Counted from the first letter of the whole stretch, positions 1,388 through 56,869 are shown. The stretch is DNA of 57,949 nt, filler included, from Sphacelaria rigidula (GCA_964200075.2; 9 parts of 9 records of this genome joined end to end with filler, not necessarily neighbours in it); one strand, 5' to 3'. Notes: generated from the letters alone by a model not told the origin. Numbers and translations are program-made.

Positions 1388-1988
1388 CTCGTTGTCGGCC
1401 AACTCGTCCTGGATCGAAATAATTACGTCTTGGCCTGCCGCCTGTCTTGCTGCCGCGGTGGTCATCTCCACGGCTGAGCCTTTGTCTTCGGCCATCCCCG
1501 CCAGCGCCATCTCCGCTTCCTTTCTGCTCTTCTCCCCTTCGCTAGCCATCAGCGTCTCGCCGTATGTGTGCGCCGACCCTATGGCTTCACGCGTTTCGCT
1601 CCTAGTACGCCCCGCCCTTGGAGTCGGCAACTCGTCGACCCACGTGAGATCGCGCCGCTGGGTCCTCGGGAGTTGAGGAGCGTCGCTGCTCCCCCCCGCC
1701 GCCTTGCGAGGGACCCGTGGAAGAGGGTAACACTGTGGGGGACGAGGGAGTATACGATGTCGATGTGGACATCGGCGTCAATGTAGGCGTGGGAGTAGGT
1801 ATCGGCGTCGGCGTCGATGTCGGCGTCGGTGTAGACGATGATGATGTTTCCTGCTCCCCCTCACCCCCTCCGTTGACTGAATCCGGAATGGGGATCTATG
1901 GCATCACCCCGTCTTTCCTCCCCACGTCACTTCGCCTCCTCCAGTACTGACAGGGATTTGCGGTGCTGTCCCACTCCCCTCACCTCCG

Positions 1989-2022
1989 CAACAAATGAGT
2001 ACGCCCCCCCCCCCCCCCCCCC
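1989..2022 (+). mobile_element. C-tailed element, extreme 3' stub plus poly(C)
   Basis: CAACAAATGAGTAC, G, then a C20 run, flanked by duplicated CACCTCCG (1981-1988 and 2023-2030); the stub matches termini at 19167-19180 and 44777-44791. Confidence 0.7.
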
Positions 2023-2034
2023 CACCTCCGGAAC

Positions 2035-2132
2035 CTGCCTGGTCCGGCGAAAACCCGGCGTGCTCCGTCCCGGCTTTGTAGGGATGCGAGGTCAATGGTC
2101 TGATGACTATGGCAAGCATGATCATGAGTACA
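2035..2132 (+). mobile_element. C-tailed element, ~100 bp subfamily
   Basis: GCCTGGTCCGGCGAAAACCCGG...ATCATGAGTAC; perfect 14-bp TSD CCCACCTCCGGAAC (2021-2034, 2133-2146); homologues at 38544, 45152 and 56744. Confidence 0.85.
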
Positions 2133-2399
2133 CCCACCTCCGGAACTCGGCTGGGAGGACAGGGCGCTTGAGGAACCGCTGGACGGAGTGTCCACTGTCG
2201 AATTTTGCACCATTTGCTCGCTCACGTCCGGGCCTGTATCGACATTGAAATCCTTCGGCTCGCGGGGCGTCTGGATCGCTTGCTGTAGTGTGCGGGAGGG
2301 AGTGGGGGAGGTGCGTGCCCATATGTGTCTTGTTACGGTGATGGATCCTCGTACAGTCGAGACTCGCATCGCGTTACCTGGGTAGCCGCCTGGGGCCGG

Positions 2400-2936
2400 G
2401 CTCAAATACCAACATTTTCCCGCCTTCGGCTGTGATTCGTTTGTTCGCCTCCTCTTATAAAACCCCGCCTTCAAAAACGAAATGAGATCACCGTCCGGTG
2501 GTGATCCGTACCACATCTGATGCGGTGATTTGCTTTTTGGGTTAGCCGAAGTAGCAGTGCGGTTAAGGGGATAGCACGCCCAGTGTGCCTGTTCAGCCCA
2601 CAGGTTGTCACCATTTAGGATTCACTCATCTGGGTACAGCTCAGATGCTTGAATCTTGGTCGCAAGACCAGCTGTTTCGATTATACCCGATGCTTGCGCT
2701 GCAACGCCGTTGAACTGGGGTGAGACGGGAGTTGTCTTTTCCCGCTTGATATTTTCTCTGTCACACAGCTCACGAAATCCACCCCCCGAGAATTCACCCC
2801 CGTTATCGCTGCGGGCTATCTCGACTTTTCTTGGAAAAAACTCTGCAATGTATTTCGTCAAGTATCGTTCTGCCTCATTTTTCGTGCGGAGGAAATACAG
2901 GTTCGTGAACCGTGAGTAATCATCTCGGGCTATCAT
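2400..2936 (-). pseudogene. copia integrase core remnant
   Basis: IARDDYSRFTNLYFLRTK...IARSDNGGEFSGGGF...TTPVSPQFNGVA, followed by a frameshifted C-terminal WYG...KCWYLSPA segment. Confidence 0.9.
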
Positions 2937-3487
2937 CGTGTATCACTTTCGCCCGTGGGACATGACTGGTTTCGGGCCGAACAGATCTTCAAGCACCCTA
3001 GACGCTGAATTAAGTGCTCTCGTGTGCGTCGATCTTGGAACCGGCGGCGTAGTCCCTTCACCTCCAAGCAACCGCAACAGGGCTGCAACTCTCCAGTCAG
3101 CTGCACTCCCAGCTGATTTGCGGTCTTTCGCAGTAGGTCCTCGTAAACGTGGGCGTACACACAGTGGGAATCGCTTATACCAACGATCTGGGCGCTAGAC
3201 GAAGCCCCCGGCGCAAGCACAGCATATGCTGAAGCATACGTGTCCCTATTTTTCTGATTGAGGCGGTGGGCATATATTTTCAGTTCACAAGTTGGTCCAG
3301 GTATTTTCATTGTATTGCCTGAAATGACATCTACCCTGAAACCGCCACGAAAACCAGTGCAGGTGTGCCTACTATTTTGGATCCTTGTGAGTGACAAGAG
3401 GTGATGACGGACATTAGGTACATGGTCAACATTCATTAATTTGACGACCACACTATCTTTGTCAGATTGGAAAGCAACAGACAAATT

Positions 3488-5003
3488 TCATCTGCCTACG
3501 ATCGGGTAAGTACTACCCCCCGCGCACCGTAGTACCCTACCCTGACACTCTCTGTACTCCGTCATCCTACAGGAATTGGTGGAGAAATACTGGGTAGCCC
3601 CCGTGTTAAACATCCACGGTTCGTTCTCACCCTGCTGTGTATCACCCCCCTGCCCAACACACAATGTGTACTTGCCTGTTCCGTCGTTGATGGCGGTGTC
3701 GAAAGAGGTGAAAGCCCCCCCGTTCGCGTCCGAGCGAACGGAGGAGTCGTCGCTGTCGTCGACCGCACCTATCGCACTCATCACATCTTCTTTCTTCGCT
3801 GTTGATCTCGCACAACCCCAAAACTTGTGCCCCGGTTGACCAAACCTAGCACAGCACTTTTTGGGCAGTCCTTGGCGCGGTTCGTCGAGTTCTCTTCGCG
3901 AATGTGGCAGCGGATTAGCTTCACATTCGCCGGTTTGCCGTCCGACCATGTCGACCCAGAGCTGCTCGAACCCTGGCTACAATCATTTTTCTGACCAGAA
4001 CCCTGGTTTTCCCCCGGGTTTCCTTTGCAGTGTGCGACGGACTGAGGCTATCACAACCTCTCGTGTTAGCGGCCCCTCTCCATCTTCCAGCAATTGCTTC
4101 TGGATGTGATTCGAACGGCAAGGCGTTGAGAAATTTCAAGAGGATGTGGTTTTCGCTCAGGGGCTGATGGTCCTCGTATGAATTCAGGTCTCGTGAAATG
4201 TCTTTCATCTTGAGCAGTTTCTGTTCTGGATCGTCACAAATACCAATCCTGACTCCATCGAAAAATTTCAACAACGCCGGTCTTGCCCCATTTGCTTTGG
4301 GGCGAAAGACATCTGCAAGTTTTCTACAAACTGCACCAGGTGAGTAAAGTCTGAGCAAGATATCTTACTTTCTCTTGCCTTCGAGACAAGCAACAAGCAT
4401 CCGTCTCGCCCTCACTTGGGCTCCCACAATGTCCTTCCCGTATCTAGTCTTCAGATATCCCAGTGATAGTTCAGGGTCGCCAACATCTACGTCGTGCGAA
4501 CTGTCGCCGGCCATGGTAAACACCCAGTCAATTCCTGCGCCCCTCGCGAAGTGGATCAGCTCATGTTTGTACCGTACGAACTCTGAGTTTTTCTCTGAAC
4601 ATTTGGACACGTTCTGTCGAAAAACGAAAACTCCTGACACATTCCCACTTTCATCGTACACATAGACTGACTCACATTCGGGGACAAGGTCCCTAGCTCC
4701 GTCGTCTTTGGCTCCATTGTCCCCCGCATCGCGAGCTACTTCCTCCGGTCCGGCTGGAGTCCCGATGTACTGGCGGTCCGCACGAACTCCAGCACTTCGC
4801 AACTCTACTGTATTGAGATTGTTTCTAGATTCCTTCTGTGGACTATGAGAGCCATCACTATCGAGGACGCCATTGATTTTAACGCCCCCGGACTCTCTCA
4901 CTACTCTCATTTTATTTACTTGATCCTGTAATGCAGTTTGGTTTGACTGCAAGTCACGTAGTAGTTCATCCATGGAGCTCAGCTGGATAGTCACTATCCC
5001 CAA
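3488..5003 (-). pseudogene. copia gag/protease remnant
   Basis: gag-like ORFs 4365-5003 and 3921-4358 (LLKFLNALP); CCHC knuckle with second Cys replaced by Phe; protease motif with catalytic Asp replaced by Asn (WMFNTGAT). Confidence 0.8.
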
Positions 5004-5088
5004 CTATTCAATCACCCTGTTCAGTTTAAACTATATATCCTTCGCCACGGGCCACGGAATACACCAGTGTTACAACCGATTGGGCAAA

Positions 5089-5286
5089 ATGGCAGATCAA
5101 GTTGGAAGGCCTGCTCCAGCAGTCGGTGAGCAGGGTGGTATTGAACAGTTGGGGATGGTGACTAGCCAGCTGAGTTCCATGGCTGAGCTACTGCGTGACT
5201 TGCTGCAGTCAAACCAAACTGCAGTACAGGGTCAACTAAATGCCATGAGGGTAGTGAGAGAGTCCGGGGGCGTTGGACGTCAGTAA
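5089..5286 (+). pseudogene. Second, inverted copia gag N-terminal fragment
   Basis: MADQVGRPAPAVGEQGGIEQLGMVTSQLSSMAELLRDLLQSNQTAVQGQLNAMRVVRESGGV aligns with minus-strand GIVTIQLSSMDELLRDLQSNQTALQDQVNKMRVVRESGGV. Confidence 0.8.
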
Positions 5287-5449
5287 GAAGGATCAAACGA
5301 TGAGTGAGAGCTAGCAGCGGCGCCGCTGTTGGCCTGACCATGGCACTGCAGTCACACACTCGACTACCAGTACCCGTGCGTCAGCATGAATCTATCTGCA
5401 CCTGTACATGTTCACTCAGTGTACCTGCTCACATGAACACGTGCAGGGG

Positions 5450-6030
5450 GGCTCAAGGTATCTGGATGTAGTTGCGAAGAAACAGGAGGATCGCGTTAGA
5501 CTCGGGGACATGAGAGGCTAGCACGGGTCCCTGCACGGAGGATAAAAGGTAGTGGGAAAAGAAAACAGAAATCGAGCGATCTAGTGGGGACGTGGACGCG
5601 ACCTGCTACGGCGCGTGGGCTCGACTTCTACGAGATGAGAGCGGTATTTCTCCACTATGCTGAACGCAAGATTGGCAACTATCTATCCAGTCATCACCTG
5701 GAGCATCTCGTCCCAGCCGAAAGCGTTGTCACGAGGACACCCGTAAAGCGTGGGCGAAATAGGAGGGGGCACTGAAAGCTATTACTGATTGCAAAGCGAT
5801 GCAATCGGGTGGGCCACCGGGTGATCTCCTCGATCTCGGGTTGGTCGGGAAGCTTTCGGAGGTTGTGTGCCACTTTTGCAGCATCATCGTTGCTGTTTCG
5901 ACATCTGACGAGGTGCCGCAGGAGTGGGAAGGTGCGTTTATCAAAGTACCACACACAAGAAAAGGGAAAGAACTCACTGAGTGTAGTAGCTTCAGGGACA
6001 CCTCCCTCATGGCGTATATTGGGGTACGCG
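5450..6030 (+). mobile_element. Degenerate RTE-type LINE ORF fragment (pre-RT and RT domain 0-1)
   Basis: R*ERYFSTMLNA..., ALKAITDCKAMQSGGPPGDLLDLGL and EVPQEWEGAFIKVPHTRKGKELTECSSFRDTSL resemble the non-LTR motifs KAxGPDxxPAELLK and [30 protein letters not shown]. Confidence 0.75.
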
Positions 6031-6351
6031 CTAGAGTAACGAAAGGTAGCTATGATCCGGAATGCCTGCCGTACTGCCGACAGCGTCGCGTGAAAGCCAC
6101 AAGCCCCTTGCTGTCGGCGGTTGATGGCGTGGGTCTCGAATACAACGACATGCGGTTGATCGTGGAGCACTCTCGTCTCTCCTCCCAACTTGTGATAATC
6201 CATGACCTCCTGACATCGGAATAATTATTACTTATGGGAAGCTACTCGTACTGTACCGAGCTGTCCACGCGACCAGCGTGTGCTGCACATTGCCTATGCG
6301 CCACGCGAGCAACAGTCAGGTCACCACCATAGGTATCGTTTTTCACTCCGC

Positions 6352-6451
6352 NNNNNNNNNNNNNNNNNNNNNNNNNNNNNNNNNNNNNNNNNNNNTTAAT
6401 TAATTAANNNNNNNNNNNNNNNNNNNNNNNNNNNNNNNNNNNNNNNNNNNN
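6352..6451. other. Artificial contig spacer N44-TTAATTAATTAA-N44 (also 12803-12902, 19253-19352, 25703-25802, 32153-32252, 38603-38702, 45052-45151, 51501-51600)
   Basis: Identical 100-nt spacers with stops in all six frames; contig lengths fall monotonically from 6351 to 6349. Confidence 0.98.
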
Positions 6452-6481
6452 CCCCCACCCCCAGGCACACACCCACCAACA

Positions 6482-6512
<31 letters not shown>

Positions 6513-6544
6513 CCCCAACCCCACCCCTTCCCCCCTCTTCAATT

Positions 6545-6963
6545 TTTTTTCCGTGAGGTTTTGGCGACGAAACATTTCAGAACATTTTCGGAACTAAACG
6601 GGAAATATTTCACGAAAAAAAATGAAGGGAGGGCAAGGTGGGGTCTTCGCACACATGCCCTGTACATCGTGTCGAAATTTCATCGAAACCGATTGAAAAT
6701 TGAGCACGGAAATCGGGTGTCAACATTTCTGTTTGCATCTCGGGAGGCCCAGCGTGTATATCGCTACATACAAATATCGAGGCCTATGTTTTTTTCAAAG
6801 CATAATCTCTCGACGGTTTCCCGTGTCAACATACCCGATTCCGGAATATTTCCACGCATCAGATTCCAGGGCAAAAATGCCGCAAATAATGGGTGACCTT
6901 TATTTGTTTCGCCCTCCGGGTCCCCGCCGGCGACGGCCTCTGGCGACCCCTGCGGGGGGCTAG
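6545..6963 (+). mobile_element. Non-autonomous Helitron-like element, 3' part
   Basis: Ends in a GC-rich hairpin (CCCCGC...GCGGGG) immediately followed by CTAG|T at 6960-6964; body shares CCTGTACATCGTGTC.AAATTTCATCGAAA with repeats at 50770-51410. Confidence 0.55.
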
Positions 6964-9831: not shown

Positions 9832-9928
9832 TATACAGTGCAGCAGTAATGGCTGGCTTTTGCCCCCTCCTGGACTACTGGACCGTCTCACGAAAAAATA
9901 TAGGAACAAAACAAAAACAAGGCGGCGT

Positions 9929-12613: not shown

Positions 12614-12671
12614 GGTATCCCAGCGGAGTGCTGAATGAGGGGCCCGAAAATATTGTTGCTTCTTGTTTAGC

Positions 12672-17122: not shown

Positions 17123-18859
17123 CATTTTGTTTTTGCGCATAATCTGGCATAGCGCCTTGCATCTGGGGGGTGTGTAGCGCGGTTTGAGGTAGTACTTCTC
17201 CCTCTTACAGTGATAAATGACCGTCGGCTGGGAAATTCTCTCCCATGATGGAGCTGTTGACAACCTTGATGCCATCTTGCAGCACTACTCGTGTGCCAGT
17301 GTGCTTTTGCCTGCGCGTGTCGAGTCAACGCGTGCCTGTGCGGCGCAATTCCCTACCGTAATCCCACCGCATTTCGTGAGACGAAACGTCATCAGACACG
17401 CTATCACGCAACGGCACGAGACGTCCCCGATACTCAATGCAGTACAATGACATACATCATCGCCGAAACTTCGCCAATCGATCAGCGGCGGTGCCGTGGA
17501 TGACCAGGTTGGTCTGCAGTTCACAGCGATATGCTCGAGTCGAGCTGATTTGGTGAACTTGACGACTTATGGTTGGAGATGCAAATACGGGATGTACTGC
17601 TGGCCCAGCTTGCACGTGTTAGCACGCCACGATAAGCATCCCAATGGGCTGGGGATATATCCCAAATAAATTTGAAAACGAGAATGTCCCCCCCCATATT
17701 TTTGGGTAGCTCCTAATTTCAGGAGCTCCTCAACGAGAAATATCTGGGCCGAATTGTGCAACCCCTACCGTAGCATGACTTTTCAGGAGGACCAAGACAA
17801 CCTGATAGGTTCGCTTTGGCACTCCTGCGGACAAAAACGCCAACGCCTCGCTCCAGCATCACGATCCCGGCGGAGAAAACTTACACGCATTGGTTCTAGA
17901 TTACTTTGCTTTTCATGGGTTCTCATGTGCACCAGGAGAGCATAAACTCGATGGAACTCGACGGGCTGCTGTAGAGCTCATCAATTACTCGACATCAAAA
18001 AGTTCAGGCGAAAGCGGGTGATCGGTCCATCTGAACTACATGCACAATCTCAAGGTGGATCTCTCCTAGGATGCTACTCTCAACAGCCCCTTGGGCTGGC
18101 CGGTACAGCCTACCGTAGCGCAGCAGAGTACAATCGCCCAGACCCGGTCATTCACGCAGTGGTCTGTTCCTGACCCGAAGTCACCCTACACCGAACAAAC
18201 GTGGGCTGTGCTGAGCCTTGCAATCGACCTACGCGGGACAGGGCAGTATCGCAGTGTCAGCGATAGCCAGAGCTCTCTCGGGAACTGACTACTTCGTACA
18301 TCCGAGACTGCTCATATCCTCGCCAAGGAAAGTCGGACTTCATGGCAAACGCGCCCGCTATTTGCAGCAGAAATGTAGTTGCATTCGTTTCTGACCTCAG
18401 GTTACTTCCCACCCCGAAACGAAGGAAAAAATGTACTCATCATGCGGATATCGGCGGTGCACGATCCAACAGTGTGAAGAAAAAAAGAGTAAGAGAAAGT
18501 CGCAAGCCTCCGCTAAAGATAGCAACGCGAATGCTACCTACTTATCGTGTACACAGCACAGATCATCATCCAGGGTAACGTCTCTTGTCCTTTTCTCGAT
18601 TGGGTATTGATGCGTGTCCTGTTGCGCAAGAACTTCCCCACTCAAAGCCGCATATTGCAGAGGCTGACCATTTCTAGTTTTTCCTCGTCATTTGTTGCTT
18701 CACTATACTATTCGTGTCTGTTCCAGATTTCTGCTTTCTCCACTTTCCTCAAGCGAGTGCCTCCGTTCTGTTTTGTAGCGCGTACGTCCGTCATGTGAAT
18801 GATGATCATATGTACGGGGGGACCAGTTCAAGTGCGACAATCAATCGAAATCAATCGAT

Positions 18860-19178
18860 CAAGTGGAATCAGCCATAAAATCCAAACAAGCGCGAGAAAA
18901 TCGTGACCCCACCTCGAGGAGCGTGCGCGCGGTCAGTGTCCCATGCAAACGCCCTCCGATGTCGGCTCGCCTTACGTCCGCCATGCCCACGTATTTACCC
19001 CCCTTTGGCACGGCCAGGAAACCCCCACGGTAGTTGCCCTCGAAATATCCTTCTACTATCAGAGTCTGCAGCATGACAATATAGTTGCAGGTCGGAATAT
19101 GGAGAACCAAGTATGCAGAGAATACGGAGAGGAAAAAATGGTTGATGGTCAAACAACTGAGGCAAGCAACAAATGGAT

Positions 19179-19210
<32 letters not shown>
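18860..19210 (+). mobile_element. C-tailed element, long variant (5' limit uncertain)
   Basis: Ends GGTTGATGGTCAAACAACTGAGGCAAGCAACAAATGGATAC with a C31 run (19180-19210); terminus matches the 44767-44847 element. Confidence 0.6.
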
Positions 19211-19948: not shown

Positions 19949-22648
19949 TCAACATATTATTTTCCGGCATTCCTTCAAGCAGTGGCTTGCATATATGACG
20001 GTGATATCTGTTATTTTGCAACGTCTGAGAGCGGAATGCGTGGTATTCCAGTCATGTCTGCTGATAGCGAGAGTTCCTTCGCCGTTTTTTTTGCCATGAC
20101 ATACTTGTCGCATTTTGAACCCCTTCCCTTCCTCGGGACGACTCCGTGACCTCAAGGGATCAACCCATCTCTCCCCGGTACAGGCGTTGCATTTTGGTCC
20201 GGCAGATTGGGTTAGCACTCCTGCCCCGCGTCAACTCACGTCGAACAAACTCAGTCAACTACTCTGTTTACTCCCGTCCTCACGCTTTCCACGGTGAAAA
20301 TCAGATACTACGGAGGAAAAACCCAACGCGTCGGGAATCGAACCCTCGTTCTCTCCACCCTGATAGCGACGGCCGGACCATTACACCACCGGGGCGCGGC
20401 GGCAAGCAGTAGCGCTGTATATACGCGGAGGAGCCAGCAGCTCTTATAAGAGAGGATCACTCACCGCTAGGGCGCTCGGTTTTCTCGTGCTGTAAAATCT
20501 CCATTTTCTTGTTCATCAGTTCGTCTTTTTGCAGCGAAAGTTTGGCCATCTTCACAACAGCGTCCTTGGCCATCTGCGAGGGTGCCGAAGTATGCATCCA
20601 GGAGTCTCATGAACGCCAACAAGCAAGGCTCACAAGCTGCTGTTTTTGCACGCCGACCCTTACGGCGCACAACAAGAGAAGCTGCAAAACGTGCAAAACA
20701 AAAACAAGAATTAAAAAAATATCACCTCGACTTCCTCGGGATTAACAGCTTTTTTACTCGTCCAATTCGCTGCCTTGACCCATCGACAGCTGGTGGGGTT
20801 GTACGCGAAGCCGGCTCCGTAGTACTCGTCCACGTTTTTGTACTTTTTGCCTCGGTAGAGCTTGATCGTTCCTGGATGGTTGATCAAGAGTTGGTCGACA
20901 TTGGAGCAACACACGAGGGAACAGACCGGATCCGAGCAGTTTGTCAAGAGTGGAAAGAAAACAAGAAATTAAGGGTCAATGAGGTGTCGTCGTGTTATCC
21001 CGGACAGTGCCGTTCCGAATATTGAATAAGGAATATCGTCGTATTATCCCGGATGCATAATCCCGTTTCAAGACATCATCGGGTAGAATTCACGCCCATA
21101 AACACACCGCACCACACCTATTGCGACGGCGTCCTTGTACTGCTCCAGCGTTAGGAAAGGCTTCTCCTCCGCCTCAGTGGAGTCACCATCGCTTTTGACG
21201 CTCAAGCTCAGATGGTGTATTGCGTTCGTTATCTGGGAAGTATGCCCCAAATAGCATCGATCGTGGGAAGCAGAGTACAACGAGAAGGCAACACGGGCAG
21301 GTGAGCAGAAAACCTCGAAAATAGACAAAATAAAATAGAGTCACCGGACACGGAACGGGAGGCACGACACCAAGGTGGATGAAGTAGAAGGGGATCATGG
21401 TGTATTGCTGTTCACCGATATGACTTTGTAGCCAGCGAAGAGACAAAAAAGCAACGGGTATGCCTTTGCTTCCACTTGGACTGACCGGCTTGCCCTATCT
21501 CAACGCTACAGCGACCAAGCGCACGAGACACGTGCATACTCTCCACTTGGGTTTTCATATCGTTGGCACAACAGATCACATCACGACCACACACCATAGA
21601 TACAGCTAGAGAGAGCACCGTAGAGGTGCTGAGGGTGACCGTTCCCAGAACAACCGCGACAGTACTACCCTTCCCCAACCCGAGAGAAAAATATATTTCC
21701 CCCAGACAAACATACACCCTCCGCAAAAACGTGGCTACGCGGAACAAAGTGCAAATCTCGCAGTTTTCATATTCACCAGAGCAAGCTCAGCGTCCGCCAT
21801 GTCCAGCTCAGCCCTCCTCGTCCGCTGCTCCGTGGTAGGTGGACACGACCTTCCAACCCTCCTACCATGATCCCCAGACGCCCCGCTGCTGCTACCACCA
21901 CCGCGCTGTGTATGGTGGTCGTCATCCTCCGACGACCATTGCACAGTCCTCTTGCTTCTACTGCGAGGGTTGGTCGATCGCCCTCGTCGCCCCTCGCCAC
22001 GCTCCCGTTCGTCTCGCTGTTCTTGATCCGAACCGCGACCACGTTGCCGCTCGCCCGAACACAGGGTGGGAAGCAGGTGTTGCTTGTCCTCGCGCTTTGA
22101 TGTCGACTCAGATTCCACGACCATCAGCCGCACCGGCTGTGGCTGTGCTTGCGGCGGCGGCGGCGGCGATACAGTAGCAGCACCACTTGGTGGCGGCGGC
22201 GGAAGCGGCGGCGGCGACGGAGATACAGCAGTAGCACTACTTAGCGACGGCGGCAGAGGCGGCGGTGGCGGCGACGGGTATGCGCCAATAGCACCACTTA
22301 GCAACGGCGGCGGTGGCGGCAGCGGCGGAGATACTACAGCAGCACCACTTAGCGGCGGTGGCGGTGGAGGCGGCGGCGGCGGCGGCGACGATACGGCAGC
22401 AGCACCATTTAGCGGCGGGGGCGGAGGCGGCGGGAGCGGAGGCGGCGACGATACGGCAGCGACCCCACTCAACGGGGCACCCCAGCGGGTCTTACGGTGC
22501 GATTGTGGATCATGCTGCTGCTGTTGGGGCGGTGGCGGCGGCGAAGTAACACTCGGTGGGACATCCCAGCGTTTCTTACGGCACGGCTTCGCATCTTGCG
22601 TGCCGCCGCTGACGCCGCCACCTGAGATCCAGACATTTTGCTGGCGGT
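19949..22648 (-). CDS. Spliced gene, 5' end undefined: ULM-like motifs, polyproline repeats, R-rich segment and an unknown C-terminal domain
   Basis: Exons ~22648-21777, 21232-21118, 20871-20726, 20573-20465 and 20007-19949; the four introns are GT-AG with matching phases (0,1,0,1): ...AELAL|ITNAIHHLS...AVAI|GTIKLYRGKKYKNVDEYYGAGF...EEVE|MAKDAVVKM...ERPS|DITVIYASHCLKECRKIIC*. Confidence 0.72.
20107..20398 (-). mobile_element. tRNA-derived SINE family 1 (intronic)
   Basis: Full-length homologue of 712-989 with A box TGGTGTAATGG and B box GGTTCGATTCC. Confidence 0.88.
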
Positions 22649-31605: not shown

Positions 31606-32283
31606 CTAGTTTGTGTTTGTACGGCGGGGCGACGTGCGGTAATTGACGACCAGGAAGCCATGGAAGAAGAAGGGGTCCTCACGACGAAACGGCAAGTGGG
31701 AGAGGTGTAGCGTTGGGCAGGATGGCGGTGAAGAGGAAGGCTAGCTCGGGTTTTTGTTTTTGACGAAGCGACAAAATCCTCATGAGATAGTCAACAAAGC
31801 TTACCGATTATTTTCAGCTGCTTTCCTCGTGATCAATTTCATGTGATGAGCTTTTAAAACGCTTATGTGTGAATGTACATCATTCGTATTGGACCCACGT
31901 TTTCCCTTGAGTACAGACGGCAAAAGAGCATGTGCTCCAGCGTCCATGTACCTACAGCGTCTAGATCCACACAGTCCCCTGTATCTCATCTTGTTCACGC
32001 ATGGAGCATAGAAAAGCAAAGTATTCCTGTAGGTAAAGTGTCCTCAGGCCTCAAAATATGGAGTGAGCTGGATGGGGGGGGGGGGGGGGGGGCGGGAGGG
32101 CTGCGAGGACGGGCGGGGCGGGGTGGGGCCACGGGTTGGCGGTAGGGAGGTGNNNNNNNNNNNNNNNNNNNNNNNNNNNNNNNNNNNNNNNNNNNNTTAA
32201 TTAATTAANNNNNNNNNNNNNNNNNNNNNNNNNNNNNNNNNNNNNNNNNNNNAGTACCGCATCTGAATTTGAATGTCCCTATG

Positions 32284-34163: not shown

Positions 34164-37100
34164 GGGGGGGGTGAGAGATGGGACACTTATGCAGACCTTC
34201 TTGACTGCGGAGCGAAAAAAAATACCGATGGTGGTGATCTGACTGTTGCTAGCATGGTGCAGAGGGGTGCATCAATTCTGCAATCTGGAGCTTTCGTTGC
34301 TCTACTCTACTGACTCCCGTCTACAGAGCATCTGCAAATTGGTCACACACGGTAACCATATTTCCATTATGTACCGAATCTCGGAACAGCTAAAGAAACA
34401 AAACAGTTGGATTTTCTAAACTACCCCTACATCATTGAAAATAATCTTGTTACCTGAGGAACTGCGGCTTCCCTAGGTTTTCCGAAATTCGGTACATAAT
34501 GTACATGTGGTTACCGTGTGTGACCGCTCCGCAGACTGTAGATTTCTGTCACTCAAGATCAGATTGCCATGTGGACTCCTCCCATCACGGGCACATGGAC
34601 TTCAGCAGCTTTAGTGATTCATGTGTCAACCTTCAGCATAGTACACGAGAAAAGGACCATAGCCTCTCTCCACCAGAGTGGCAAATCGGTCCTACTCGTC
34701 GTCCAGGTCACCATTACAGAGTCCGGCAATCAGACCCGCAACTCGACCTACAGTGTCCCTGACCTTAGGTAACAATGGTGGCTAGGTCTAAAGCACCCCC
34801 AAAGCTCTATACTACCAACAAGTAGTTACATCAGAGCTTGACAAACTCAGACATCATTGGTACCTGATAGTACCGTCGTTTTCCGCGAAAAATAGAAATC
34901 TCTTCCGCTGCTTTCGACAACAGCTCCATACAAGCTTGCCCCACTTCCGAACAACTCGCTAGAGATCCCAAGAATATTTCGTCCATCATGAACATGTAAT
35001 CACGCTACTTGCACCACTTCGAGTTAAAAAGCGATAGCTAGCGCCAAATTCTCAAATATTCGCCCACAACAAGTCCCTCAACATACAAAATGCACTCTTT
35101 GTACGTTCAACACCTGCGAAACAGAGTGCAATAGCCAAATGATACATCATCTTCACGCTAGAAGGAAATAAGCACCCAACACGTCTAAGAAAACCAACCA
35201 CGTGCTTGTTCAAATAGGTGACATTCCATACCAAAACGTGCCACGGTCAAAGATCATTGATGCATGCGCGCATGATGTCTTTATCTTCAATCGTCGGAAG
35301 CAGTCGCGTCATACCTGCACACATACGACAAGCCTACGCATTTCGTAGTTTGTTTCTCAATTCAGGCGAACAGCAGCAATCCATATATCCTGCACTCAGT
35401 ACGTGCAAACCGCACAAATATGATCCGACTGTGTTCCTGCGCGAACAGGATTATACGAGCTTCTCTTCATTTAGCATGCAGCAGTATATTGAAAACTGCC
35501 CCACCCTAGGTCGTCACCAGATACCATTCTTCATATCAGTACCATTTGAGCAAACGTTCGCACATGCCTGCCAGAATTCCACTTAGCATATGAAAATCCG
35601 CACATGCATGCCAATATTTCACTCAGCATATGCAATGTCACCTTCCTCGCAGCAAACACCATGCATCATCCGTGCCAACCAGATCAGTGCAACACACACA
35701 TGCCAAATATCCACGTGTACGCCAGAGCTTTACCCTGCACACGCGATACGATCATACTCGCTCAACAACCATGTTTCATGCGCAAGCATGACCACAAACG
35801 ACACAATAACAAGCTGAAATCGTTCATAATGTGTCTCCTCATTCTCAACAAGCACTCGATCACCACAGCACTTGCTCCTCAAGATCAGTACCCCACTCGG
35901 CGCTCACCACGACAGCAAACACCTTAGGTAATGCCTTCTTTGTAGTCCTCCAGCCCGCTCCTGAGAAACAGCAGCACTCAAACCACAACCCAATGCACAG
36001 CGTGGAGCAGCCTTTCTTCTCGGACTCTATCTCCTTGCACCTTCAGTCTAGCTACACCTGGCACCCCCATGGTGTAGCTCAGCACGCCTCTAAAAGGTAT
36101 ATTCGCACCGCCATCCCAATGCAACAGATCATCTGCCTCCACAGATACTTGGGCAGTACTGAACACTTGTGCTTCAGTCAGTTTTACAGAGGAAACCAGA
36201 GGCGAAACGGGAACAGCTACACAGTCCCGAACAGCAACACCTCCTGATGGCACACTATCCTCCTCAAACACCCCGCGGCGAAACAGTTGAGACACCTCCG
36301 CCATCGCCGCCGAATACGCCAAAGATGTCCGTTTAAACAGCAGTGCACACGACCACCCCAACACCACGCGACGCTCGTCGTCGCCGTCAGAATTGTGATC
36401 GCTAACAGCATCACGAGCTTGCAGCTCGCGCTGCGTACCCGCTTCGCGCGGGTCACACGCCCCTGTTGTTTCGATCATGCAAGGCGTGTCCACAGCCACG
36501 CGCTGCTCCGGCGGCAATTCCGCCAACCCGGCATCCACCTGTCCTTGAAGCAGACACCCCTGCAAATCATCTGAACGATCTCTTGCCATGTCACTGGAGC
36601 AGATAGATTCACCCTGAGCATCGCAAGCCCCAAGCTTGCTCTGCTCACTCTCATCACGAAGATAACACCCGCTTGCAGCGGTGAGCATGCACGGTGTGTC
36701 CCCAACCACGCTCTGGTCCGGCGGCCACAAGCAACCTGGACGTTTGCCGCTCAGCGCTAGATCATCGGAGCAAATTGGCTTCGCGCTTCAAACAGCAGTG
36801 GCAGCAGCGGCTGGATCAAATACTCCCGCTTCAGCCACCACCTCCTGCTCAGCGCACTCCTGAACGGCAACAGCGGCTGCTAAGCTGCCTGCAGTCTGCT
36901 CGAGCTGCGTGACATATTCGCCCTCTCCAGCAGCAATATCAGCATCCAAACTAATGCTTACCGTGGAACTGTCAGCCGGCGCTCTCTCATGCCTACCCGC
37001 TTTGACAGACACGTGCTGTGTCTCCTTCCCGCTCCTCACAATGGAAACAACTACCCTGTATCGTGGTTTAAGACGCGCCCTACTGACTGCACCTTCAGCG

Positions 37101-38517
37101 GGTCCACTATCGCGCCTATCCCCTCGGGCAGACACATACTTCTCGGCTTCAACAGTGCAAGCATCTGCCCTGTATCGTGGTTTCAAACGCGCAGCACCTA
37201 CTGCACGTTCGGCGGGTGCACTGTCGTGCCTGTCCTCTCGGGCAGACGCATATTTCTCGGCTGTCACAGGGCAAGCAGCCCAACGGACGGTGCATGCCTG
37301 CGCAACGCGAAAAGCAACTGCTTGTTCTCAACATCATACTCATGCTCCAAGAACGTGTCACACAGACAAATCACAATATGTTTCGGCATGAGCTCAGAAA
37401 CCGCTGTCACCTCAAAAAGGTTTGTCCACCGCGCGTTCACCTGATCTACATCTTGCAAATATTGCTCGTATTTGCGTAAAAACTCGGCCGATTTCTCGCT
37501 CGAAAACTTGCGGCCGTAGTACGGCATCTCCAGCGCCAGTACAGAAACAAGACGACCATCGACGATGACATATTCCTGCACCTCATCCATGTCGGTCAGC
37601 AGTACAGCACTCCACGCCGCCTATTTGAAAAACGAAGTCGCCTCCCACTCACGGGAACAACAACTCTCTCCTTACATCGAGACGCGCTGCACCACCTTAA
37701 AAATGGCAATGGCCACAGCGCCTCTTCCTCACGTAGGTCTCACCATGTGTTTGAAGTCCTTAGACTCCTCTTCCTGGCCGTACCTGGCCAAGCGTGGAAC
37801 AAGCAACTCTCGCTGGCTCCACCAGGCAGTAATCGCCCCGCTTTTTTTGGAACGCTCACGGACTCGCCAGCTGTCGATGAACGCCCCGAACCTCACGCAC
37901 GAGCGATACCACAGCCCGCCCTGACACTGCCTCAGAAACTCCTTGGCTCTACTTCTCCAAATCCTCGCGACGTTAACACGCCTTGAGCTGGTCTTGTTTA
38001 CTGCAAACTGATCAGGCCTGCAGACTTCCCTATCTTGAAGTGTCAGCTGCTTTTCAGCGGACCTACCGCCTGAGCGGACTTCATGAACGTTCATTGTAGA
38101 CTTCTGTCACTCAAGATCAGATTGCCATGTGGACCCCTCCCATCACGGGCACATGGACTTTAACAGCTTTAGTTATTCATGTATGAACCCTCAGCATAGT
38201 ACAGGAGAACAGGACCATAGCCTCTCTCCACCAGAGTGGCAAAACCGGCTCTACTCGTCATGCAGGTCATCATCACAGAGTCCGGCAATCAGACCCGCAA
38301 CTGCACCTACAATGTCCCTGACCTCAGGTAACAATGGTGGCTAGGTCTGGAAGACACTCTGCAGACGGGAGTCAGTAGAGTAGAGCAACGAAAGCTCCAG
38401 ATTGCAGAATTGATGCACCCCTCTGCACCATGCTAGCAACAGTCAGATCACCATCATCGGTATTTTTTTTCACTTCGCATGTCAAGAAGGTCTGCACAAG
38501 TGTCCCATCTCCCCCCC
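34164..38517. mobile_element. Foldback/MITE with ~220-bp inverted arms, split by an LTR element
   Basis: 34175-34328 is the reverse complement of 38356-38511; 34341-34386 mirrors 34480-34525. Confidence 0.85.
34537..38351 (-). mobile_element. Non-autonomous LTR retroelement (LARD-like) with gag-like remnant and no recognisable pol
   Basis: Direct repeats 34537-34792 and 38095-38351 begin TGTAGA and differ by roughly 9-10% by eye; 4-bp TSD AGAC (34533-36, 38352-55); G-rich PPT-like tract next to the left LTR on minus; gag-like ORF 37264-37590 (EFLRKYEQY) and repeat-containing ORFs 36788-37267 and 35978-36730. Confidence 0.85.
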
Positions 38518-38543
38518 ACACACACACCACACACACCACGGCG

Positions 38544-38602
38544 CTTCGCGCTTGGTGGTTTGGGTGCAAGCCTGGTCCGGCGAAACCCCGGCGTGCTCCG
38601 TC
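38544..38602 (+). mobile_element. C-tailed element 5' part, cut by the contig end
   Basis: CTTCGCGCTTGGTGGTTTGGGTGCAAGCCTGGTCCGGCGAAACCCCGGCGTGCTCCGTC matches 56744-56801. Confidence 0.8.
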
Positions 38603-44766: not shown

Positions 44767-44847
44767 GGGGGGGGGGGTACTCATTTCTTGCTTGCCTTAG
44801 TCGTTTGACCATTAACCACGCATCTCTTTCGAGACGGAGTCATCTAG
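44767..44847 (-). mobile_element. C-tailed element, ~70-bp subfamily
   Basis: Minus: CTAGATGACTCCGTCTCGAAAGAGATGCGTGGTTAATGGTCAAACGACTAAGGCAAGCAAGAAATGAGTA then a C11 run; degenerate TSD acacgaggagg (44758-68) / acacaaggggg (44848-58). Confidence 0.75.
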
Positions 44848-44858
44848 ACACAAGGGGG

Positions 44859-45051
44859 GAAAGGAAGAGTGGGAATATATATCAAAGGGGGAAAATCGAT
44901 TTTCATTGACGAAACAAACATGGGAGCTTCGGCCGAATTTTGAAGGTTAACAACAAGGTAATCATTTCAGTGTGCCCATAGGGACGGCTGATCCCCTCTC
45001 GCGATGAAAATCGATTTTCCCCCTTTGAAATATATTCCCACTCTTCCTTTC
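44859..45051. mobile_element. MITE with ~48-bp near-perfect TIRs
   Basis: GAAAGGAAGAGTGGGAATATATATCAAAGGGGGAAAATCGATTTTCAT (44859-44906) is mirrored at 45004-45051 with one mismatch. Confidence 0.85.
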
Positions 45052-45151: not shown

Positions 45152-45198
45152 TACAAAGCTGGGACGGAGCACGCCGGGTTCTCGCCGGACCAGGCTAA
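45152..45198 (-). mobile_element. C-tailed element 5' part, cut by the contig start
   Basis: Reverse complement TTAGCCTGGTCCGGCGAGAACCCGGCGTGCTCCGTCCCAGCTTTGTA, preceded by a C-rich flank. Confidence 0.8.
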
Positions 45199-45505
45199 GG
45201 GGGGGCGGGGTATTTGATTGCACGAAAACAGAGGCTCACAGGTGTGTCAGACGACCTGCCACACTCGCGTTGCGCTTGTACTTCGTTTAAAACGGTGTCA
45301 AGCAGTACGAATGAGGGTTATTTATCGATAATAAGGTCGTTCAAAAAACAATTGCTGCTTTCAACGACGATTTGACTTGGAATTTCGTGCAAAAAGAGGC
45401 CCAAAACCCCCCCCCCCCCCCCCCGCCCCCCTCTAACGTGGGATGACTCTTTACAACAAAGCAAAGTGTCCAATACACGCACGCAAGGTAATCATTTTTC
45501 ATTAC

Positions 45506-51410: not shown

Positions 51411-52753
51411 GAGTTGTGCCACGACTTGTGCGGCACCACGTGGCACAAAACTGACTGTAACCGAAAATCCAATCTCAGCCGTTTTCTCTTGGCTAATTCC
51501 NNNNNNNNNNNNNNNNNNNNNNNNNNNNNNNNNNNNNNNNNNNNTTAATTAATTAANNNNNNNNNNNNNNNNNNNNNNNNNNNNNNNNNNNNNNNNNNNN
51601 CTTCCGCTTTCGCCCCGGGCCTTGCCTCCCCTAAAACTTTTTGTCCTGGTCCTTCTTGGGGGAGATGGAGGCCCCCCCCCCCCCCCCCCCTCCCAAAGGA
51701 GCACATCTTCGTGAGATAACGTATTGAAACAAACAGTGGCAATGTCTGCTCTACACAGCCGCTTTCGATACTCGTACATAACTTCTATATCCGATAATTG
51801 TGCGTACAACGTTCAGAGAAGAAATACATGAAAGTGTCGGCAGTTTTCCTATTGGTCAACATCGGTATGTCGCTGATTTTTCGCCAAATCAACCAGTCAG
51901 TCCTTGAGGGGCCGTGCAACGTGAGGTACGTACATGTCGGATCCCCTTGGGAAAGCCACAGGAAGCACACAACATCTCTCCGCTGCGGGCGGCGGATCTG
52001 CTACATGGGCGCTGTTAAAAAAATCCACGTACGCCTATTGCAATAGGGTATAACGACAAACTGGTGGCGCTGCAAGAGTGCGGTGCTACGCACACAACGA
52101 CCCCGCGGGGAACCACTCACGGCAACACTTCAATTATGTGCCGACGAGATGTGGAGTAAATCTTCAAATCTTGACAAGATGGACTGCCATCGGCCAAACC
52201 AAACTAAACGACAACAACGCCGACACCGATACCGACACCACCAACATCCCCACAACCACCACAATCACAACGACAACAAATTCGATTTCATTACAGCCGA
52301 AAACAATCTCACACCCGAGAATATGAACACGCCAAGGAGGTGGGGCAAATCAAAATGTACCAAACAATTTTTCACGAAAAAAAAGAAAAAAGCAAAAAAG
52401 AAGAGCACAGGATAAACTGACCCCCACAACCAATCCGATGCTCGGACTCTTTCTTTTTCTTGGGCCAATCAGAAGACTGCGTGGGTCATCTTTACCCTTG
52501 TGTCTGCCAGTGAGCACGTACATTAGATCCGAGACGAGCAGGTCAACGTACACCTCAAACGTGTAAGAAATCATTGAACACCAGGGCAGGGGAAAAAATC
52601 AAATTATCACCAATATAACGAAATGCCAGTTGTAAACTGTAATCTGACCAGTGCACACAAGACCAACTCAACAACAATGCCCCCCCCTACGAGCAAGGAA
52701 AATAGTGGAAACCGTTTGATTGCAACGGAGAACAAACCACACCCTGGAGAAAG

Positions 52754-52905
52754 ACAATATATGGTCAATGGTAAAATAGACACGAAAAGCACTGCGTAAA
52801 GTGTAGGCCTGTTGCGACTATTGTCGGCCGCCGACAAAAGTCGCAATAGGCCTACACTTTGCGCAGTGCCTTTCGTGTCTATTGCAACTATTGACCATAT
52901 ATTGT
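52754..52905. repeat. 152-nt near-perfect palindrome (foldback MITE or pre-miRNA-like hairpin)
   Basis: Arms of ~75 nt centred on TTGTCGGC-C-GCCGACAA, about 90% complementary. Confidence 0.9.
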
Positions 52906-53141
52906 TCAACGTGTGGAACAATCCGACAGATGGGCCGAAATTTTTTCGAGGAAATATTTCCATCTTTTTCCCGAACAAAAAATGGATGAAAAACACAATT
53001 TCTCTCTCCTCCCTTCCTTCTGGGGCGTTTCAGCACTCACCCGGCGCAAAATTATCGATCACCTTGCAGCTCAATAGGCCATGGCTGTGTGTATACATGT
53101 ATATACTATATAAATATGTGTGTGCCCGCGACAACCTTCGC

Positions 53142-55555
53142 TCACTGCTGCAACTTTTGTTGACAACCATGGCATAGCGTCACGGTAGCGGGTGCTCCTG
53201 GCGGTGCCCGTGGTGCTTCCTCGACCACCATCTTCACCCTTTCCTGACCGCGACCATGGCCGCTGCTGCGTTCCATTCCACTTCGGGTCTTGAACCTAGC
53301 TGGCGTTACATATTTCGGCGGGGGCATCTCCTTCTCAGACGGAACAGACCGGAAATTTCTGAGTGCTGACGAAGTGACCAGGGATGTGTACCTAGGCGGC
53401 GGAGTGTCACCACTGCTGTCTCCATCCGCCGTCGCCGTCGCCGCCGCGTGGAATCTACCGGGTGTCGTCTTGGGATTATTATCAGGATTCGGTGCCCATT
53501 CTCGGCGCGCCAGTCTCAGCGGCGTGATGTACCCCGGTAACTCCTCCCCCTTGTCGTCATCCGCGTTGGACGACGCGGACGAATTGCTGGGAGAAGCGAC
53601 TGCCGCGCTCCGTCGCGGCAGGGACGACGGCCGAACATGCTGCGCCGATCGTTCTCTAGGCGTAGGCACCTCCAATCCGCTGAACACCGTCTCCAGCTTG
53701 GGAGCGACGTACGCTGGCTTCTTGTAGGTTGCAGGCGCGCCCACCACGCCTCCTCGCGCATTATCCGGTGTTTCCTGACCCGACAACCGATACGTTGTAT
53801 TGCCGACTGCATTCGGTAAGGGCACGGCTGACTGCGGGTGTGGCAAATACACCGCCGGTATTCCCCCCTGCGCTGCTGCTGTCACTACTGTCCCCCTTTG
53901 CTCCTCGCCCTCGAATGTCCCCATCCCATAACGCCCGTAGTTTCGGTTACTGGGCGGTGTCTTGTATCGCGGAAGCTCCCGCGCTGTCGCGGCCTCCAGG
54001 ATATCCTCGATCTCCGTAGATTCCATGACCCCCCGCCAGATTTTCGAGGGTGTGGAGTGCTGCTGCTGCTTCCAAGACCAGATATCTGTCTCAACCTCCA
54101 CCGCCGATGAGAATTCCGCAGCCTCACCACCGGCGCCGCTGCCCTGCGAAGGTATCTTTCCGGGTGTCGACGCACTCGGTGGCGGGTAATACGCCTCGTG
54201 CCTCGAGTAGCGTGCCGTTGAGCTGAGTTCCAAACTCTTGCCCCGGCGTCGTTTGCTCATCGCGGATGTCGCGCGGCCGTCGCCGCTCGGGACGTTCGGG
54301 GACGGAGTGTTGTACGTTTCCGTTGCCGGCGATCCAACACCGGCGACGCTGTGACGGCGAAAACCCTTCCCCTGCGCCACATACTCCGTCCTAGGGATGA
54401 CCATAGTCCTGGCGCTCTCCTCAGGCGTTCCCGGGCGATCGCAGGAGGATCCACCTCCAGAAAGTGGCGGCGGTATGATGTGCTTCTGCCAGTCTTCCGC
54501 CATTTGCCACTCATCCGGAGTACTCGGTTTGATGTCCCGCATCCATTTCGCCGGCGTCTCGTGCTTGGGCGGAGGAACCGACGCCCTCCTCGTCATGAAA
54601 TTTTGCCCCTGCGGAGATGTCTTTGCGGTCCGCGCCCCGCGTGGAAGCTTCGCCGGCGTGATGTATTGGGGCAGCTCCTCCTGCTCATCTTCCTCTTCCA
54701 CATCCATTTGCTCCGAGTAATGGGACTGTAGCGATCCATTCAAGGAATCTTCATTGTTGATCCCGCTCCCGCTCCCGTCCCTGCCGCCGCCGATGCCGAT
54801 GCCATTGGCGCGTTCCGGCTGCACCAGCGTGGTATATCTCGGCTGCACGCCATCAATGTGGGTTTCATCCGTCGCCTGGGAAGTGGACTTCTCTCCCGAT
54901 TCTAAAGTGCTGCTCATCAGCGGCGAGCTCGCCGCGGCGGAATCTTCCGAGGCCGTCGATTTCGGAGCCCGTTTTTTCATCGCTCCCTTTTGGAGATGAC
55001 CCCTACTGCCCAACCCCTCCTTGCTCAGACCGTGCTCGCGGCGCGTGACGATTTCGATTTCTCTCGCTCGTGCCGCTCCTTCAGAGATCGAAGACTGGCG
55101 TGCTGGCTGTCGAGGGTAAGCCGTCTCGCAGTCCCCGCTCATCGTACCGCCGCCGCCGTCGCCAGCAGCACCGTCACTATAATCCGCGCCATGGCTACCC
55201 CCACCCCGAGAAGTACACCCCTCATCGGCAGACACCCCCTCCGCACGACTATCCTCACTCCGCTTGCTCGCGAACTTGCGCTGTAAGGCACGCTGCTTCC
55301 GACATCTCATCACACACCAGCACCCGAAGGCGGCGATGATGAAGGTCCCGGCGAGAACTACGCAAAGCACCTCCACCCACGAGACCGTCGATCGGGCCTC
55401 AGTGCCCTTGACCGCCGCGTCCATGGCTTCCCCATCGTCGGGAACCCCTCCCAGGATCGGTGAGGGCGTTGGTATGATGGCGAAACCGCTTCCCGTGGCA
55501 GACGTTGTCGCTGCTGGGGACGGATAATCCGTGTTTCGACTTTGGCCCACAATAC
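53142..55555 (-). CDS. Terminal exon of a single-pass membrane protein with a ~720-aa disordered cytoplasmic tail
   Basis: Acceptor CGCAG|GT ATT at 55555 (phase 1), then 804 codons to TGA; S/T/P stalk, TM WVEVLCVVLAGTFIIAAFGCWCVM followed by basic RCRKQR; GC-rich and stop-free over 2.4 kb. Confidence 0.88.
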
Positions 55556-56743
55556 CTGCGGTCTCCAACGTCGTCGTTTTATTTCGTTTCGTTGCCAAAC
55601 CAAAGGAAGCAGCGGAACGGAACGACACAACGACACGAACACACACACACAGAACGCGCCCAGATGAGGAAGGAAGACATTTATCATCGTTGCAGATCAA
55701 TACGAGAACAGGGTTCGATCGACATTTTGACCCCCCAAAAAGAAGGGAAAGACGGCACCGACACTTTCGTTGATATTTTAATAACAGGACGATACACACG
55801 ATACTTGTACTTGATCTCGATTCGATATTCCGCTGCATTGTGTCTGTCAGAGTAGGTAGAATGAACAGCAGTATGATAGGTAGTACATAGACTATTAAAG
55901 CGCAGGCTCTAGTATACAATGAACGAATGCCACACGAGAGCGCTTTAGCATTGGGATATGAAAAGCAGTTCCTGTGTATGCGTCACGAAATGACGGTACC
56001 GATATTTTTGGGGTCGTGGTTAAAAAAAACGATTATCGGTATCATGGGTGTTTTAGTTGTCAATAGCTACCAGTAGGTGGAGGAATGCAACCATATTTGT
56101 AGGTACCAAGATTTTTAATTTTCCGGGTTATCGTCCCCAATGAAAAGCTCCATGCTCGATTTCGAGGTTCGCCTATTCTTGGAAAAAAAATCGTACGCGA
56201 TCCTTAATCCGACAATCAGTGCGAGGTGCAAGTTTTGGACTCTTTCACCGCCACGATGGGTCATGTATACAATCGGCATCACTCTCCACGGAAACAGTGG
56301 AAATATGATGAGACTCACGTGGCCCACCCTGGTGATCAAGAGGCCATACACACAAACAAAAACAGAGGGTGTGTTTTCATTTCACTGGAATCCGTTGACA
56401 CGTTCTTCAGATCACTCTTCCTCTGATGTAACTGTCTACTGATAGTTGCATCGTTACGCTACCTCGTTCATTCAGAGATATTTGTCAAGCGGGGATCCTG
56501 GGACAAAGAAAAGGCAGTGGTGAAATAAATACAAGCATTGATTGCGCTGCACAAGCTGTGAAAGCGATCTTATGTATATGGGCCACTGAAGAACTCTTGT
56601 TCTTCATGCTCGCGAAGAAAAATTGGAATGTTTACAGCCGCTTCTCAGGCCGTATCGATGCAGAATACAAAAAATACGATTGCTCACGAAGTCTGTTAAC
56701 GTTGAATTTTATGTGATTGGTCGGTTCGATACCCCCCTCCCTC

Positions 56744-56869
56744 CTTCGCGCTTGGTGATTGAGTGCGAGCCTGGTCCGGCGAAAACCCGGCGTGCTCCGT
56801 CCCGGCCTTGTAGGGATGCGAGGTCAATGGTCCCATGACTATGGCAGGCATGATCATGAGTACACCCCC
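56744..56869 (+). mobile_element. C-tailed element, complete ~120-bp copy
   Basis: CTTCGCGCTTGG...GCCTGGTCCGGCG...ATCATGAGTAC-ACCCCC; flanks acccccctccc / acccccgtccc look like a degenerate TSD. Confidence 0.82.

Follow-up and report, generated by a model that had tools for sequence, protein, structure and literature searches.

Seven C-tailed insertions in Sphacelaria rigidula DNA as probable products of one LINE and a SINE-like partner

Retroposons that end in a run of C have been described in the brown alga Ectocarpus, and we analyze here a comparable system in a stretch of DNA from Sphacelaria rigidula (GCA_964200075.2). In the consulted entries of Supplementary file 1 of the 2025 Ectocarpus transposon curation (PMC12477816), RTEX-1_Ec32, a long interspersed nuclear element (LINE) of 5511–5867 bp, is given as ‘single EN-RT ORF; (C)n 3'’, that is, with one open reading frame (ORF) for endonuclease and reverse transcriptase (RT), and its target-site duplication (TSD) as ‘C-rich’; RTEX-2_Ec32 is annotated ‘(C)n termini/TSD’. 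Two non-autonomous elements accompany them: RTEX-N1_Ec32 (607 bp; ‘5' head unknown’, ‘can be present in tandem’, ‘60 bp 3' end 83% RTEX-1/RTEX-2’) and RTEX-N2_Ec32 (188 bp), which ‘could be SINE’ (short interspersed nuclear element). Excerpts of the main text name RTEX-N1 as the most abundant family and do not discuss the C tail. The other clade-assigned LINE families in these excerpts belong to RTE, with (CAA)n tails, and to CRE, with (CA)n tails, and three LINE/Unknown families are also counted in Table 1 of that paper. Recently active RTEX-1 elements in kelp are mentioned in the consulted part of the Saccharina genome paper (PMC4421812), and a literature search for poly-C-tailed elements of the non-long-terminal-repeat (non-LTR) class beyond Ectocarpus gave nothing relevant.

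The window, meaning the whole stretch of DNA analyzed, is 57,949 bases long and consists of nine sampled pieces of ~6350 b each, with spacers N/ttaattaattaa/N between them; sampling, and not assembly, thus accounts for the copies that appear to break off at contig ends. An earlier note, made from the sequence alone, had described seven C-tailed insertions in the window as several non-autonomous families mobilized by one RT, possibly an undescribed system. Reading the window sequence recovered seven insertions at all the described places and bore out the retroposon reading, in that the copies have one fixed 3' end, are truncated to different extents at the 5' end, and come with duplications and C tails. 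We attribute them, with considerable confidence, to a single system of LINE/SINE retrotransposition in a (probably brown) alga; its LINE is most likely a relative of RTEX-1/2_Ec32. The system is not a new one: brown-algal RTE-X LINEs with (C)n tails, RTEX-1/2, are already catalogued in the file cited above, together with their partners RTEX-N1/N2.

A 3' end common to a LINE and a SINE-like family

Three of the insertions (1988, 19139, 44777 minus) are 3' ends of a LINE, and the other four (2037, 38531, 45152 minus, 56744) belong to a single SINE-like family (Table 1). Because alignment A1 and blastn assign all seven, one LINE and one SINE-like partner account for the insertions, and not several non-autonomous families; the upstream bodies that had been taken as a sign of different families are truncated copies of these two. 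The body of ‘possibly ~300 bp’ proposed at 18860–19136 aligns to nothing (no sequence related to 18800–19136 turned up among the external loci or elsewhere in the window), and only ~42 nt behind it belong to an element. The shared 29-nt motif GGTYRATGGTC-N4-RACTNNGGCARGCA occurs four times in the window (2090+, 19140+, 44789-, 56822+) versus none in 100 shuffles, and a 32-nt word of the SINE-like body (2038–2069, at most one mismatch) likewise occurs four times (2038+, 38571+, 45163-, 56770+) and never in shuffles. The looser pattern ATGRRTACCCC, with one mismatch allowed, gives 14 window matches versus 2.5 expected; the three inspected of its nine extra matches (8829, 30414 minus, 35884) have no C run behind them and no element sequence ahead.

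The partner LINE was recovered from public contigs. Scanning with the 29-nt motif yielded three loci in metagenome contigs and two more in prokaryote genome contigs, while viral contigs gave no match for the body pattern or the 3' motif. The motif is a LINE 3' end in all five external loci, where a long ORF ends ...GAPSRKGCVVNGQMTKASNK, followed by the stop TGA, then GTAC(G) and C8 to C13. The ‘structured’ motif of the earlier note, which does recur four times in the window, is foremost coding sequence: the last codons of the LINE ORF (...VVNGQMTKASNK) plus the stop codon. The LINE is almost devoid of a 3' untranslated region, its TGA lying inside the terminal ATGAGTAC, with (G) and the C run directly behind. 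The LINE-type RT sits in the same ORF as the shared 3' end (RVT_1 in L001 and L003, E 2.8e-33 and 3.1e-31), and the supposed dependence on one RT holds, with LINE ORFs in L001–L006. Open frames of 678 aa run off the ends of LINE loci, whereas L006 keeps an unbroken frame of 1382 aa without stops, matched in one open frame by the protein P0001 over residues 1–1360 at 88%. Full-length relatives in the protein collection, P0001 and P0002, are 80% and 73% identical to the L003 ORF; their precomputed domain annotation places PF03372 (with or without PF14529) ahead of PF00078, relatives of this type carry a Cys/His motif near the C-terminus, and the closest solved structures to the LINE protein are L1 ORF2p and R2. 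Judged from these sequences, the autonomous element is a LINE of ~5 kb with a single ORF of ~1330–1380 aa, predicted to encode an apurinic/apyrimidinic (AP)-type endonuclease ahead of the RT and, near its C-terminus, a Cys/His motif. This arrangement, together with a fixed 3' end, 5'-truncated copies, and duplications of variable length (three further copies have no clear duplication), is that of the AP-endonuclease non-LTR (LINE) class. Long copies with an RT ORF, which the earlier note had suggested looking for, thus exist in public contigs, and tblastn found none in the window.

Contigs with algal LINE or SINE-like copies are filed under two bacterial metagenome-assembled genomes, G002 (L004, L007, L009–L014, L016–L024) and G001 (L005, L006, L008, L015), which points to eukaryotic contamination of these bins.

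The SINE-like family has a short non-coding body and a LINE-derived 3' end, as expected of a SINE. In blastn against a 5259-nt LINE contig, only the last 59–64 nt match, at 81–83% (59 nt at 83% for the 2037 copy, 64 nt at 81% for the 56744 copy), and the head has no similarity to the LINE 5' region. The region of the 2037 copy is 94% identical to 56769–56873 in a repeat search. All window copies are 5'-truncated, because in each DNA run 310–575 contigs extend beyond 56744 in the 5' direction and have a 30-nt consensus in common (agreement ~0.75). The 38531 copy extends 13 nt further 5' than the 56744 copy, and these 13 nt agree with the loose-end consensus before 56744. A related family in the algal contigs of G002, 71–85% identical to the window copy, reaches ~290 nt; duplications are not recognizable around seven diverged relatives there. 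In one of these contigs (L016, 1470–1500, minus), two copies of the last ~11 nt of the element (ATCGAGTAC...) stand 13 nt from each other ahead of a C run; template slippage, or a stub inserted into a tail, may have left this pattern.

The earlier view that these are not transfer RNA (tRNA) SINEs stands. A head derived from RNA polymerase III transcripts (tRNA, 5S, 7SL, small nuclear RNA) and bearing an internal promoter, as a SINE in the strict sense would have, was not found, although the window copies lack the 5' end and make the test incomplete here. Rfam gave no match at gathering score over the whole window, none at E <= 10 for 56700–56890, chance-level matches only for 38440–38602, and nothing relevant for seven loci with longer relatives; ARAGORN likewise recognized none of the heads. 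A hammerhead ribozyme, suggested by CTGATGA (2100–2106) in the 2037 copy, was dropped since 56832 reads CCATGA and Rfam has no match.

The common end may also be structured. Two hairpins closed by GUGCUC with the terminal GAGUAC are predicted for two LINE ends, and in alignments read by eye the closing stem is conserved in the SINE-like family, as are the stems of the two hairpins. The LINE has GAAA as its first loop and the SINE-like family 9 nt, and the second loop varies among AAAT, AAAC, TAAT, TGAT, CCAT, and ATAC. At one position of the first stem the pair is U-G in L001, U-A in L003, and C-G in both SINE families; it was taken by eye because MAFFT did not align the first hairpin of the LINE correctly with that of the SINE. 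RNAalifold of nine 3' ends predicted a hairpin UGGUC-N4-GACUA with extensions. Since the region is also coding in the LINE, only the SINE comparison speaks for structure, and the case for a structured 3' end is suggestive but thin.

Table 1. Positions of the insertions, their tails, and their flanking duplications in the window
Feature	Position	Strand	Evidence or remark
8-nt duplication CACCTCCG, left copy	1981-1988	+	flanks LINE stub; right copy 2023-2030, exact
LINE 3'-end stub, 15-16 nt, 5'-truncated (GCAACAAATGAGTACG)	1988-2003	+	alignment A1
C20 tail of stub	2004-2023	+	between element end and right duplication copy
11-nt duplication ACCTCCGGAAC, left copy	2024-2034	+	flanks SINE-like copy 2037; right copy 2136-2146, exact
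SINE-like copy, short form, ~96 nt, starts GCCTGGTCC, ends GAGTAC (2131) then A, CCC	2037-2135	+	
LINE 3'-end copy, ~42 nt, 5'-truncated, diverged	19139-19180	+	alignment A1
C30 tail (31 with last C of TAC)	19181-19210	+	sequence reading
SINE-like copy, 5' part, cut by end of sampled piece	38531-38602	+	body word match
C10 tail (11 with last C of TAC) of LINE fragment	44767-44776	-	sequence reading
LINE 3'-end copy, 63 nt, 5'-truncated (codons ...PSRKRCVVNGQTTKASKK, stop)	44777-44839	-	alignment A1; motif match
SINE-like copy, short form, 5' part, starts AGCCTGGTCC after C-rich flank, cut by start of sampled piece	45152-45196	-	
SINE-like copy, 121 nt, 5'-truncated, ends GAGTAC (56863) then A, C5	56744-56869	+	motif, body word

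The first piece (1–6351, minus), inside which both nested insertions lie, is a Ty1/copia retrotransposon (RVT_2, E 3.2e-17 at 142–684); of 100 listed window frames of at least 110 aa, the 89 run against Pfam matched only a copia RVT_2. The only match to a 925-aa ORF at 53142–55919 is itself. A 48-nt inverted repeat with arms 98% identical and ~100 nt apart (44859–44906, 45004–45051) stands directly upstream of the truncated minus-strand LINE fragment.

C tails, targets, and abundance

Five insertions have complete ends, with runs of C3, C5, C10–11, C20, and C30–31, and three of the five carry a G or A between TAC and the run. The stub ends ATGAGTAC-G-C20 (2003/2004–2023), the 2037 copy ATGAGTAC-A-C3 (2132–2135), and the 56744 copy ATGAGTAC-A-C5 (56864–56869). 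Counting the last C of TAC, the 19139 copy ends ATGGATAC with a C31 run (19180–19210) and the minus-strand 44777 copy ATGAGTAC with a C11 run (44767–44777). The stub is identical letter for letter to the ends of L001, L003, and L005, the G after TAC included; the G at 1988 can be assigned to the duplication or to the stub. At least eight C follow directly after all eight LINE 3' ends (five external, three window), and the (C)n 3' tail with C-rich duplications is as in RTE-X-type elements.

Four duplications of 8–14 bp had been claimed, and two of them hold: those of 8 and 11 nt are exact and nested. The two ‘degenerate’ ones (44767 minus, 56744) are mere C-rich resemblance, and at 19139 only GGAAAAA recurs. 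Both nested insertions used one junction, which would place the bottom-strand nick, at this one site, at 5'-GGAGGT / G-3'.

Two lines of evidence identify the C run as a true tail. First, the C20 run separates the end of the stub from an exact duplication with a sequence other than a C run. Second, the C30 and C10 runs of the 19139 and 44777 (minus) copies lie on the 3' side only. The opposite reading, in which a tail-less element inserts into pre-existing (C)n microsatellites and the runs are the split or duplicated target, is improbable against these facts and against the C run directly after GAGTAC(G) in eight of eight LINE ends. Some observations do speak for it: a C run precedes many copies (loose ends before 56768, the flank at 45196, the relative in L017, the C7 before 38531), the consulted entry of the Ectocarpus curators gives ‘(C)n termini/TSD’ for RTEX-2 (PMC12477816), and four long C/G runs in the window have no recognizable element ahead. 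A mixed picture explains both sets of facts. Taken together, the position of the C20 run, the 3'-only runs, the C runs before 56768, the head-to-tail joints described below, and the placement of the 38531 copy directly behind the C7 tail of another repeat fit a true tail combined with a preference for earlier C tails as targets.

The four runs without an element ahead are 6482–6510 (C29), 45407–45424 (C18), 51672–51690 (C19), and 32074–32092 (G19); with three tails they make seven runs of 11 or more in 57 kb, and they may represent insertions of a tail alone, further families, or C microsatellites.

The SINE-like family is very abundant, with a summed depth ~10^5 times that of single-copy sequence across four public runs. 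Across the bin 56689–56900, summed contig depth reaches 2.6e6 in run X1, 1.07e7 in X2, and 5.6e6 in X6, versus ~10, 65, and 28 for single-copy neighbours; the ratio of element to single-copy depth, near 2e5, is not a copy number, and part of the excess may lie in arrays. Copies stand head to tail, since run contigs join 56869 back to ~56770 (‘go back 100’) through short C-rich linkers. In addition, 102–158 contigs per DNA run (three runs) end in a C run just before 56768, the start of the short form. The public runs that contain the ninth piece carry labels that include ‘algae metagenome’, and none of those listed is registered as RNA. Run X4 is nevertheless RNA-like, with one contig skipping from 52778 to 52893, and contains the element, although C-tailed transcripts are not thereby shown.

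A second high-copy repeat lies at 817–988, 20226–20397, and, inverted relative to these two, 57778–57949, with a summed depth of ~2.7e5 in X1 versus ~10 for single-copy sequence.

A more distant alternative is that the insertions come from several non-autonomous families that are unrelated to one another, with a Penelope-like or unknown RT as their possible driver. A second repeat family of the window, at 38095–38517 with further copies, could be cited for it, as this family has a C-run end behind an unrelated 3' end and more than one C-tailed lineage may exist. We nevertheless consider this very unlikely for the seven insertions: the three ‘other bodies’ align to the end of the LINE ORF in A1, and the partner has an AP-type endonuclease (Exo_endo_phos) and a LINE-type RT (RVT_1), not the GIY-YIG sought as the mark of a Penelope-like element. 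Least credible of all is a DNA transposon, a Helitron, or a homopolymer artefact of assembly or sequencing, for which no support was found beyond the error-prone sequencing of homopolymers: the copies have no terminal inverted repeats, no inverted repeat among the 25 longest repeats listed sits at their ends, the opposite-orientation ends GTACTCAT... and ...GCGCGAAG are not TC...CTRR (ends of either kind, named in the earlier note as grounds for rejection, were looked for at the copy ends and not found), the same C runs recur in five public assemblies independent of one another and in the Logan contigs of four sequencing runs, and the RT-encoding partner has the same end.

The second family is ~423 nt long, with copies at 38095–38517 (+), 34537–34789 (+), 34169–34328 (-), and 6293–6351. 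It ends ...GTGTCCCATCTC followed by C7–C8 (38511–38517; 34164–34171 minus), an end that differs from that of the LINE; a separate lineage of C-tailed LINEs may have this family as its partner.

A possible insertion route

For the system of one LINE and one SINE-like partner, insertion would follow the established model of target-primed reverse transcription (TPRT) for AP-endonuclease LINEs. The endonuclease would nick the bottom strand in G-rich DNA, at the best-resolved site 5'-GGAGGT / G-3', and the freed DNA 3' end would pair with the C tail of the RNA. The RT would select its template through a terminal domain of ~65 nt, the two small hairpins closed by GUGCUC/GAGUAC. Tail length, 3 to 31 here, would vary by slippage or untemplated addition, and old C tails would be good targets, leading to C runs ahead of many copies and to head-to-tail arrays.

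Going further, we put forward as a tentative and rather doubtful proposal that RTE-X elements of brown algae use C tails in a variant of the mechanism by which L1 uses poly(A), with recognition of a 3' domain, priming from G-rich nicked DNA on a self-lengthened C tail, preference for earlier C tails, and a partner in ~10^5 copies. The ~65-nt domain would then overlap the last 22 codons of the RT plus the stop and be kept in the SINE with different loops, and the SINE-like partner would pile up head to tail and seed the genome with long C/G runs.

Several observations weigh against these interpretations. The window holds four SINE-like copies in 57 kb, a density that suggests a lower abundance unless arrays hold many. 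Tblastn of 101 LINE proteins against the window gave no match at E <= 1e-3, no full-length LINE lies there, and the LINE is represented in Sphacelaria rigidula by three short tail fragments. Its RTE-X assignment, though most likely, comes from the Ectocarpus table and shared C-terminal peptides, not from phylogeny. Clean duplications flank only two of five complete copies, both at one target. The flanks are only modestly C-rich: by eye, the 15 nt after ten tails contain 56/150 C (37%) versus 26% in the window, with one site counted twice among the ten flanks. The earlier proposal that a nicked strand rich in G serves for priming is plausible, but it draws on this one target site and on these flanks. 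Finally, the folding evidence is weak, with no compensatory change in any of the 14 pairs predicted by RNAalifold for the nine 3' ends and with z-scores from single-sequence folding that reach -1.7 and -2.1 in two LINE ends and lie between -0.7 and -1.3 in window copies.

C-homopolymer tails are unusual among LINEs, and in the literature as consulted they appear as a remark in one supplementary table, where their origin is not studied. To this the window adds that the end shared by the LINE and its partner is coding sequence plus stop codon, that one nick site was used by two independent insertions, that head-to-tail copies stand behind C runs, and that the partner is possibly extremely abundant. 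These observations are useful for brown-algal repeat annotation and offer a starting point for the study of TPRT; what is known of retroposon mechanisms is unchanged.

Comparison with known systems

The closest match is Ectocarpus. RTEX-1/2_Ec32, as described in the excerpts (PMC12477816), share with the LINE found here a single EN-RT ORF, a length of ~5.5–5.9 kb, ‘(C)n 3'’, and C-rich duplications. The cluster of P0002 (cluster 2) includes Ectocarpus proteins, and the Ectocarpus protein P0003 ends ...RVANGQMTTASNK, the C-terminus of our LINE; cluster 2 and P0003 thus have its C-terminal peptide, and hence its 3'-terminal nucleotides, in common with it. The LINE is a different family or species from the Ectocarpus ones, because its protein identity is 73% to the Ectocarpus-type P0002 and 66% to P0003. 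We infer that P0002 corresponds to RTEX-1/2, the Ec32 elements being compared here by description.

By its descriptive features the SINE-like family would be kin to RTEX-N1/N2_Ec32. In the consulted entries, these have a head of unknown origin, a ~60 bp 3' end at 83% (59–64 nt at 81–83% here), C-rich duplications, tandem copies (head-to-tail joints here), and a place among the most abundant families of the genome. They differ in length, the window copies, all 5'-truncated, reaching at most ~135 nt and the relative in G002 ~290 nt, and in abundance, which here looks one to two orders above the 2000–6000 copies given for Ectocarpus. As to recognition, the SINE-like family bears a likeness to the eel pair UnaL2/UnaSINE1 (‘stringent’ recognition), in which the SINE carries the 3'-terminal stem-loop region of the LINE and depends on its RT. 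It differs from that pair in that the shared region is coding sequence plus stop codon and the tail is a C homopolymer, not a short tandem repeat.

The present system also has features in common with L1 and Alu, whose tails are poly(A): copies end in a homopolymer, are truncated at the 5' end, have duplications of variable length, and lie in targets rich in the base that makes up the tail. Its tail base is C, not A, so the tail is not made by the cell's polyadenylation, and its partner shares sequence with the LINE, unlike Alu.

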